Shown: piece by piece, positions 31,681 to 32,739 of the stretch
Layout: each line of letters begins with the position of its first letter
Position numbering within the stretch: the first letter of the stretch is position 1
Source: Eledone cirrhosa
Lineage: Eukaryota
Reading direction: 5' to 3'
Assembly (NCBI GenBank): GCA_964016885.1
Contig: OZ024740.1
Coordinates: 370,016,001 to 370,080,000, forward strand
DNA length: 64,000 nt
Translations under genes and position numbers: made by a program
Notes under the pieces: generated by a model
What the model saw: the letters and a program-made list of their open reading frames with translations, nothing else
Told to the model about the DNA's origin: nothing
The model's database searches: none

Positions 31681-31929
31681 CACACACACACACACACACA
31701 CACACACACACACACACACACACACACACACACACACACACACACACACACACACACACACACACACACACACACACACACATATATATATATATATATA
31801 TATATATATATATATAATAAATGTAATCTGAGGTTTTCGAATATTAATAATAACATTCGATTCGTTTGCAATTATGCAAACACGCCTCAATGTTATAGCT
31901 ATGTCAGTAGCTATAACATGTGTTGGCAT

Positions 31930-31995
31930 GTGAACAGAACTGCAGACACTAATGTTTCTGGGTATCACCCTTCATCAGTACAGCTCACTGTTCAC
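31930..31995 (-). ncRNA. Extended type I hammerhead ribozyme, GUC triplet
   Basis: GUGAACAG-UG-AGCUGUA-CUGAUGA-A-GGGU-GAU-ACCC-A-GAAA-CA-UUAG-UG-UC-UGCAGUU-CUGUUCAC. 15-bp stem I with a 2-nt bulge. Confidence 0.85.
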
Positions 31996-32050
31996 CTGAC
32001 AACTGTCAGAGCTAGTGAAAATATATGCTATTTTCAAAAATACACACTCA

Positions 32051-32149
32051 CTGATCGGCCTGATTTGCATATTAGCAGACTGGCTGATCAGACAGATCTG
32101 CATATTAGCAGATTCACTGATCAGTCAGATTTGCATATCAGCAGACTGG
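32051..32149 (-). promoter_or_regulatory. Three 33-bp repeats carrying octamer ATGCAAAT motifs upstream of the hammerhead
   Basis: ATTTGCAT at 32063 and 32129, with a variant ATCTGCAT between. Function is inferred. Confidence 0.45.
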
Positions 32150-32739
32150 CCAGTCAGTTTCCTGTATACGAGCGATAAATATCCGGCTTTGCCAAATTCA
32201 AATAAAAAATAAAATCTTCGCTCTGCATGGCTGAATACAATAAATGTAATCTGAGTTTTTCGAATATTAATAATAACCATCGATCCGTTTGCAATTATGC
32301 AAACAAGCCTCAATTTTATAGCCATGTCAGTAGAATGAACCCTTCATTCTTGCTTTTTTTGTTAGTATTGAGCTGTACTGATGAAGGGTGATACCCAGAA
32401 ACATTAGTGCCTGCAATTCTGTTCACATGCCAACGCAAGAACAAGAATGAGGGGTTCATTCTACTGACATGACTATAAAATAAAGTACCAGTAATGTACT
32501 GGGTAATTGCTGGCCTTGTGCCAAAAATAAAAATAATTATTAATATTCGAAATACTCAGAATACATTTATTGTATTCAGCCAAGTAGAGCGAAAATTCTC
32601 TTTGAGGAGCAGGTGTTAAGAACAATAGCTAGGCAGAATAGATTAGACGTGCCGAAGAAGAGATGAAAGGTAAGAAACAAGGGATATGAGGTCATGAAAA
32701 TGTAATGAAAAGAGTAAGATCAATTTCAGATTGGAAGCG

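Follow-up and report, generated by a model that had tools for sequence, protein, structure and literature searches.

Can a non-coding hammerhead repeat carry, inside its own unit, the promoter from which it is transcribed? This question is raised by a 64,000-nt stretch of Eledone cirrhosa DNA (hereafter the window), which is AT-rich and filled with microsatellites and which contains a hammerhead unit described in an earlier note as a self-promoted, retrozyme-like repeat. We propose, with a probability of roughly 0.6, that the unit is a non-coding hammerhead repeat that would be moved in trans by a Penelope-like element (PLE), probably of Neptune type, and would possess its own snRNA-type promoter, as predicted by sequence comparison. 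The features of the locus are the following, unit positions being numbered from the base after the GUC triplet (+1).

31680..31816, no strand: (AC)51(AT)17 microsatellite, adjoined by the 3' end of the main copy
31816..32357, minus strand: main copy, a 5'-truncated partial tandem running from +26 to +437, through the cleavage site, and from +1 to about +144/149
31908..31918, minus strand: micro-inversion specific to this copy, in place of about +27..+50 in the second pass
31930..31995, minus strand: type I hammerhead with predicted cleavage after 31945 (CUGAUGA core, 31978-31972; stem II, 31970-31960; GAAA, 31958-31955; C17, 31945)
32018..32028, minus strand: TATA-like element, 43-45 nt from the box and about 30 nt ahead of stem I
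32022..32057, minus strand: U1/U2-type PSE-like block (13.6 bits in the window copy, background 1.1e-5)
32051..32150, minus strand: three 33-bp repeats, 56-155 nt upstream of stem I
32060..32071, minus strand: TATGCAAATCAG, the box of the last repeat (15.3 bits against the proximal box of host U6, U6atac, and tRNA-Sec genes)
32096..32103, minus strand: ATGCAGAT, the variant of repeat 2, with no octamer
32129..32136, minus strand: octamer 1, ATGCAAAT followed by CTG, matching the host Pol III box less well (11.3 bits)
32204..32214, minus strand: first T-rich run of the unit (+170..180)
32369..32603, plus strand: 5'-truncated copy in inverted orientation (+395 to +169), facing the main copy head-to-head
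32475..32548, plus strand: 74-nt 3' piece of a SINE within the inverted copy, with its junction at +110 of the unit

Much of the architecture previously described was recovered. The minus-strand hammerhead (31995-31930) has the 15-bp stem I, the 3-bp stem III, the GUC triplet, and the A opposite A attributed to it, and the three 33-bp repeats were found at the distance given for them. The unit was said to close on itself, and natural head-to-tail pairs elsewhere in the genome, spaced by 444, 437, and 437 nt, agree with this. Several details required amendment. Only two of the three octamers exist, repeats 1 and 3 containing ATGCAAAT and repeat 2 ATGCAGAT, the usual form in the family (71 of 111 copies). 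The inverted copy does start at 32369 but, contrary to the initial description, does not run straight into the sequence found at 32353, about 7 nt lying between them; it reaches about 32603 rather than 32597, has no outer stem I arm, and includes the SINE piece. As it has a GCC triplet instead of GUC, it is predicted to be inactive. A UG bulge had been drawn in stem I, where a UGA/U internal loop freeing U1.7 is equally stable (-18.2 vs -18.8 kcal/mol). The A-A at 10.1/11.1 is present, although it can also be read as a G-C at 10.1/11.1 plus two extra As.

The SINE piece occurs elsewhere in the window (7774, 21994, and 49798), and this SINE presumably resembles those of octopus. It is repeatedly joined at +110 with variable 5' junctions (window 32475-32548; L048, L057, L058, L052, L204, and L222), reflecting either an insertion hotspot or template switching between two RNAs.

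Is the hammerhead a genuine family character? A 35-mer spanning its core, A.A included, has 1,092 exact matches in the 3.0-Gb genome and none in the reversed control; it is therefore part of a repeat and not a chance motif. As all 1,092 matches contain the A.A, this is a family trait rather than damage. An Rfam scan of the window returned no hammerhead match at the gathering score. The outer strand of stem I exists in three subfamily variants (24, 19, and 15 of 146 complete stems), all still paired via wobbles. Across the families found behind the same promoter-like box (see below), position 10.1/11.1 is G-C, A-U, U.U, or A.A. The 437-444-nt family, to which the window copy belongs, and the families F1, F3, and F4 have both U1.7 and a loop 2 whose last base is A, residues that would form the hammerhead tertiary contact. 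Hammerheads also have a conserved reverse Hoogsteen pair, according to the accessible part of PMC6155905. Stem III is quasi-palindromic with a predicted pairing between two copies of -8.8 kcal/mol, an arrangement found in dimeric hammerheads (PMC4209133, accessible sections). The older hammerhead families behind the same box (L271-L288, corresponding to F4; L279, L270, L273, and L287) all have a palindromic stem III. The lowest-energy fold is predicted to bury the core (-25.0 vs -18.8 kcal/mol for the active fold, a gap of 6 kcal/mol), and the circular fold of the unit reaches -136.9 vs -94.6 +/- 6.0. A slow hammerhead would be in keeping with the cut site being crossed by nearly all cDNAs. 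Cleavage was dispensable for insertion in vitro in a PLE study (cited among PMC11167929 and PMC8557442, available passages).

To what class of element does the unit belong? A DNA similarity search gave 4,413 candidates, 40 of which were scored, and a pattern combining the box and the ribozyme core gave 1,819 matches vs none in the control. Ninety loci were fetched around the first matches listed; four duplicates were dropped, and the 86 analyzed loci still include one identical pair (L238/L239). Direct tandem pairs, 437-444 nt apart, number three among the first 100 matches listed, and two cut sites are spanned by six of the 86 loci. The 3' ends fall at +135..150 in 44 loci, at +160..185 in 16, at +105..120 in six, and elsewhere in 20, with two preferred sites about 35 nt apart. 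At the 5' end, 47 of the 86 loci have an inverted piece. Among the 55 earlier loci, (AT)n stands next to 63 of 104 piece ends, and 62 of these 63 ends are located at +137..182. The signature of PLEs, as far as the available portions of PMC11167929 and PMC8557442 describe it, comprises a pair of ends separated by 30-40 nt, priming at internal sites, the extension of both strands, AT-rich targets, and 5' copies in inverted orientation. The 437-444-nt unit is very probably a dispersed non-coding hammerhead repeat with a Penelope-type insertion structure. The label retrozyme-like used in the earlier note was well chosen in view of the unit size, the type I hammerhead, the partial tandems, and this insertion structure. 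As animal retrozymes have already been presented in print as non-autonomous PLE derivatives (10.64898/2026.07.22.740005 and PMC7229834, accessible parts), the element class is a known one.

A satellite-like repeat spreading at the DNA level by recombination or rolling circle, with the ribozyme being incidental, is a highly improbable alternative. The long tandem arrays of the related F1 family would suit it, but the 437-444-nt family is dispersed: no long array was seen in the 86-locus sample, and the longest piece, 786 nt, is under two units. The random 5' truncations, the inverted 5' pieces, and the fixed 3' ends at microsatellites contradict such a spread, which is largely refuted by this end structure. 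The copies have a median identity of 95.7% to the column majority (155 pieces), and with about 4% divergence from this majority the family may be inactive now. A surplus of inverted pieces ending at +1..+20 (5 of the 17 that get there) was dismissed, the numbers being too small and stalling at the stem explaining it equally well. At locus L187, a U6atac retrocopy is joined directly to an inverted piece of the family, which suggests co-integration or template switching. Contigs from two sequencing runs of unrecorded kind cover the unit and are silent on expression, starts, and strand.

Which PLE might mobilize the unit? No PLE ORF was detected in the unit by tblastn or nhmmer in the fetched loci, and the PLE protein pieces of the window give no match inside the 437-nt unit. 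Likewise, the fetched loci contain no autonomous PLE sharing this unit and no pLTR homology. A hint comes from the 39 loci without an inverted self-copy, two of which (L040 and L052) have their 5' end fused head-to-head to a 5'-truncated PLE. Both PLEs encode an RT, a zinc finger, and a GIY-YIG at the C terminus, and we read them as Neptune-type; a third head-to-head fusion among these 39 loci is to a LINE RT. In the window, a broken, 5'-truncated Neptune-type PLE (GIY-YIG; 43629-45790, plus strand) is head-to-head with an F1 copy. Such fusions could point to a PLE partner. The PLE at 43629-45790 also has an end flanked by (AT)n and, near 45586, a minimal motif resembling a hammerhead. A second broken PLE (45816-48830, plus strand) has a long 3' region ending at (AT)40. 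An antisense U6-type box, the third box in the window, lies at 47915 (minus strand) and is not followed by a hammerhead.

What would drive transcription of the repeat? We compared it with the small-RNA genes of the host. U6 genes (L131, L132, and the L133 array) and a U6atac gene (L183) share the box TATG(C/G)(A/T)AATNAG at -77 to -79 and a TATA at -30/-31. The tRNA-Sec gene (L258), fetched afterwards as a prediction test, has the same box at -80. The box is therefore found at -77 to -80 in 5/5 tested types of host Pol III gene with an upstream promoter (three U6, U6atac, and tRNA-Sec), with a box-to-TATA spacing of 46-48 nt. This comparison defines the host Pol III type 3 box as an octamer-like 12-mer at about -78, a definition useful for guide-RNA expression and for SNAPc evolution. 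Nine promoters of U1/U2 genes are without the proximal box and score no higher than 8.5 bits. In the U1/U2 promoters (L111-L113 and L151-L160), a block centred on TCAGT lies at about -57 and is accompanied by a TATA-like stretch, and the U1/U2 genes end with a clear 3' box (8.3-24.2 bits). A T(A/G)ACCTCCC-like distal element, at about -260, is present in several Pol III and U1/U2 genes. Two U6 matches (L144 and L145) and 14 of 15 U6atac matches are without proximal box and were left out of the matrix as retrocopies; several box-less U6/U6atac matches adjoin microsatellites or other repeats. Host genes also form tandem arrays (G000:C3:307349256-307453739; C19:31780605-31840331; C1128), with units of 2.2 kb for U2, 1.8 kb for U6, and 2.7 kb for U1. 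In L137, one U6 promoter is interrupted by the SINE that is also found in the inverted copy.

Matrices built from host genes only (five for Pol III and nine for U1/U2), in matrix windows picked after the resemblance had been seen, identify two promoter-like elements in the unit. In the last repeat, TATGCAAATCAG reaches 15.3 bits when matched to the 12-nt Pol III core (14.2-18.4 for host genes by leave-one-out), with a background of 1.1e-5 and no equal among 300 shuffles. On the wider 19-nt matrix, the 437-444-nt family scores 8.2-9.8, below every host gene (11.9-27.1), and 20 of 300 shuffles reach this score. Among 125 copies of repeat 3, 80 have the full box, and CTG terminates repeats 1 and 2. 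Fifteen bases downstream of the box, a U1/U2-type PSE scores 17.4 bits (host genes, 4.9-30.0), a value reached by none of 264,196 background positions and by one of 300 shuffles. Its score is still 12.6 bits when the most similar host gene is removed, and the family median is 12.7 bits (116 copies). The box-to-TATA spacing, 43-45 nt, is 2-4 nt shorter than in the host. The start predicted from the PSE, which lies about 58 nt upstream of it, is unit position 385 (around 31997), and that predicted from the box is 388-391 (31994-31991); these positions straddle the first base of stem I (unit position 387; window 31995). Judging from the box shared with host U6 and tRNA-Sec genes, the RNA likely comes from a borrowed small-RNA promoter, and chances appear good that the unit has a working promoter of its own.

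The self-promotion put forward earlier gains in this way a U6-type box, a U1/U2-type PSE, and starts at stem I, all three predicted by host-trained matrices. Of the octamer repeats pointed out earlier, the last is the only one carrying the full box. The analogy with newt satellite 2 holds only in part, as the octamer corresponds to the host proximal Pol III element at about -77 and the host distal motif differs.

Is the box restricted to one family? F1 (42630-43480, minus strand) has a 470-nt unit, 96-99% identical copies, and long tandem arrays, and its box is the strongest of U6 type (19.6 bits on the 19-nt Pol III matrix). It has no significant BLAST similarity to the 437-444-nt family (best E 0.3). 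Common to both is ATGCAAAT followed 31-33 nt later by AGCATATA, a pattern with 9,178 matches vs 17 in the control, the first 100 listed all coming from these two families. The main 3' end of F1 is at its first T5 run (19/34). In 844 kb of fetched DNA, we counted 34 hammerhead-like clusters; the box precedes F1, the 437-444-nt family (four clusters), and F3, and is absent from the other 28, some of which are near-duplicates or chance folds. At spacings outside those of F1 and the 437-444-nt family, the box-plus-core pattern has 145 matches vs 0 in the control. Twenty loci fetched from these 145 include F3, an old family F4, F5, and further single examples; as they have the box by construction, the informative features are the excess over the control, the fold, and the TATA spacing. 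The box-to-TATA distance is 47 nt in F4, the exact U6 spacing, and 48 nt in F5. Five of the 20 own-genome loci, each taken as a single copy, survive a strict fold filter, and the F4 fold is clear in an alignment of 11 copies (72% column identity) and not in most single decayed copies. F4 also has T-runs soon after the cut site. No PSE match was found in F1, F3, F4, and F5 (best 2.5 bits). The closest to the 437-444-nt family is F3 (E 2.3e-8 over the promoter), F1 being marginal (E 0.1). At the level of sequence, at least four other hammerhead families carry the host U6-type box. These families are probably distant kin in which the box was kept and the rest diverged. Box-plus-core matches in metagenome contigs were rejected as chance matches, with a hammerhead fold in 0 of 116 loci under the same strict filter. 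Two more hammerhead-like motifs of other families, without box, are located in the window at 57281 (minus strand) and 60311 (plus strand).

Could these motifs have ceased to function? It is distinctly unlikely, in our estimate, that the unit has no working promoter now, being copied from host read-through, with the motifs as relics of an ancestral pLTR or as RNA structure. The 5' ends would agree with this scenario, as no accumulation of them is seen at the predicted start: nine of the 86 loci end at +376..391, and 76 run across. So would the internal palindromes of the three repeats, which fold into a single long RNA hairpin (z -6.55, alongside the circular fold reported above), and the within-family conservation of the box, 0.95, resembling the 0.92-0.95 of neighboring sequence. 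However, the neutral decay of dead copies cannot reveal selection within a family, and across five families otherwise barely alignable the box is the best-kept non-ribozyme sequence, at a spacing that would place the start at or in stem I. As the predicted start is crossed in 76 of the 86 loci, the templates include the promoter.

Which polymerase would read the unit? The templates had to cross T-runs at +170, +342, and +361, which are hard for Pol III to cross and are ignored by Pol II. The first run of at least four Ts is at +170 in the family majority and in 26 of 33 pieces, and the RNA of most cDNAs crossed it. The T-rich run at +170..180, which is the second preferred 3' end in other copies of the family, might at best be a candidate Pol III terminator, pairing with the AT target being an alternative explanation for the coincidence of T-run and 3' end. 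A unit used by Pol II only seems unlikely to us. Its repeats would be POU/octamer enhancer sites acting on the U1/U2-type PSE or on a plain TATA, and the U6-type reading would be incidental. This would account for a 17.4-bit PSE at the right distance, for the crossed T-runs, and for two perfect octamers in tandem repeats, and a Pol II snRNA promoter is described for newt satellite 2 (PMC2220036, in the part available). It does not account for F1, F3, F4, and F5, which keep the box without a PSE match, nor for the exact U6 spacing in F4; host U1/U2 promoters are without the proximal box and have a different distal motif, and an snRNA 3' box was not found in the unit (best 4.5 bits vs 8.3-24.2 in the host). 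The distal element of the host type (about -260) was not seen on reading the unit.

The reading that we prefer, a PLE-mobilized hammerhead repeat with its own snRNA-type promoter, would operate as follows. The promoter would combine the host U6-type box, an older trait common to the related families, and, in the 437-444-nt family, the U1/U2-type PSE. Where units stand in partial tandem, the promoter that closes one of them would initiate RNA at the base of stem I in the hammerhead that follows, and this RNA would run through the whole unit and its three T-runs. Because of this crossing, Pol II acting from the PSE would be slightly likelier than Pol III as the source of the promoter-bearing template, the two being nearly balanced. 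Dual polymerase use is plausible by analogy, as one human gene is reported to be transcribed by both polymerases (PMC3499247) and as small PSE differences are described as deciding polymerase choice in insects (PMC1761439), according to the sections available of both papers. A slow, probably dimer-assisted hammerhead would cut late or religate, leaving templates continuous across the cut site in the form of a circle or an uncut multimer. The PLE protein would nick (AT)n DNA and prime internally at +140 or +175; copying would go back through ribozyme and promoter, and priming on both strands would produce the head-to-head inverted pair. With its unit permuted in this way, a retroposon would be able to take an upstream promoter along. 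U6-type upstream promoters are normally lost on retrotransposition, and the retention of one inside a permuted unit would, if true, be a new solution. More tentatively, and with less than even odds, at least five retrozyme families may have captured a host U6-type promoter at the permuted unit end, with the hammerhead trimming the start, and the 437-444-nt family may be in a switch from Pol III to Pol II, having gained a PSE over a weakened U6 box.

How does this layout compare with known systems? Metazoan non-LTR retrozymes, in the accessible parts of PMC7229834 and 10.64898/2026.07.22.740005, are similarly non-coding and self-paired, with a type I hammerhead, partial tandems, and a PLE connection. 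They are quoted there at 170-400 nt, the 437-444-nt unit being slightly longer, and the present family differs in consisting mostly of dispersed 1-1.8-mers with PLE tails and inversions. The axolotl HHR_Amex2 is reported to have a non-canonical base of helix II (U.U), like the A.A here. No native retrozyme promoter was found in the available text of PMC7229834, where "octamer" occurs 0 times and "promoter" refers to T7 only, or in that of 10.64898/2026.07.22.740005, in which no mollusc was sampled. The pLTR and tail of PLEs (PMC11167929, PMC8557442, and PMC4209133, available portions) have in common with our unit the partial tandem, the optional 30-40-bp tail, the two internal RT starts, the inverted 5'-truncated copy, the AT-rich targets, and the palindromic helix III. 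In contrast to PLEs as described in these portions, the unit has no RT/GIY-YIG ORF, its hammerhead is of canonical type and not minimal, and its predicted promoter is an upstream one of snRNA type instead of an internal pLTR promoter with an intron. With host type 3 Pol III promoters, the unit shares the 12-nt box, a TATA-like element near -30, and a purine start after T. It differs from them by the spacing, 2-4 nt short, by the missing CC after the box, by the distal element, which was not seen, and by an overlapping U1/U2-type PSE.

The only precedents that we met for a native promoter in such repeats are that of newt, of Pol II snRNA type, and that of schistosome, an internal Pol III promoter. 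The newt satellite 2 promoter is said to include an octamer and a PSE. The schistosome satellite promoter is internal (A/B boxes), whereas the 437-444-nt unit has a predicted upstream promoter resembling type 3. In the accessible part of PMC2220036, which refers to Coats, Zhang and Epstein (1994), newt satellite 2 is cited as a hammerhead repeat whose unit includes an snRNA-type promoter, and the schistosome satellite is a hammerhead repeat with a Pol III promoter. The newt promoter is described as a Pol II one, whereas the 437-444-nt unit shares the U6-type proximal box of its host together with a TATA. Among the results listed (the top 12-20 of up to 626, subscription journals not being covered), our literature search gave no report of a U6-type promoter in retrozymes or PLEs or of this box in cephalopods. 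The repeat is an element of a known kind, and we did not find its proposed promoter layout in print. The promoter reading yields exact predictions of start sites and of the effect of mutations, and thousands of dispersed copies of the box could affect host transcription. In one F3 copy (L289:1498-1618), the box is duplicated 39 nt apart, which echoes the triplication in the 437-444-nt family.
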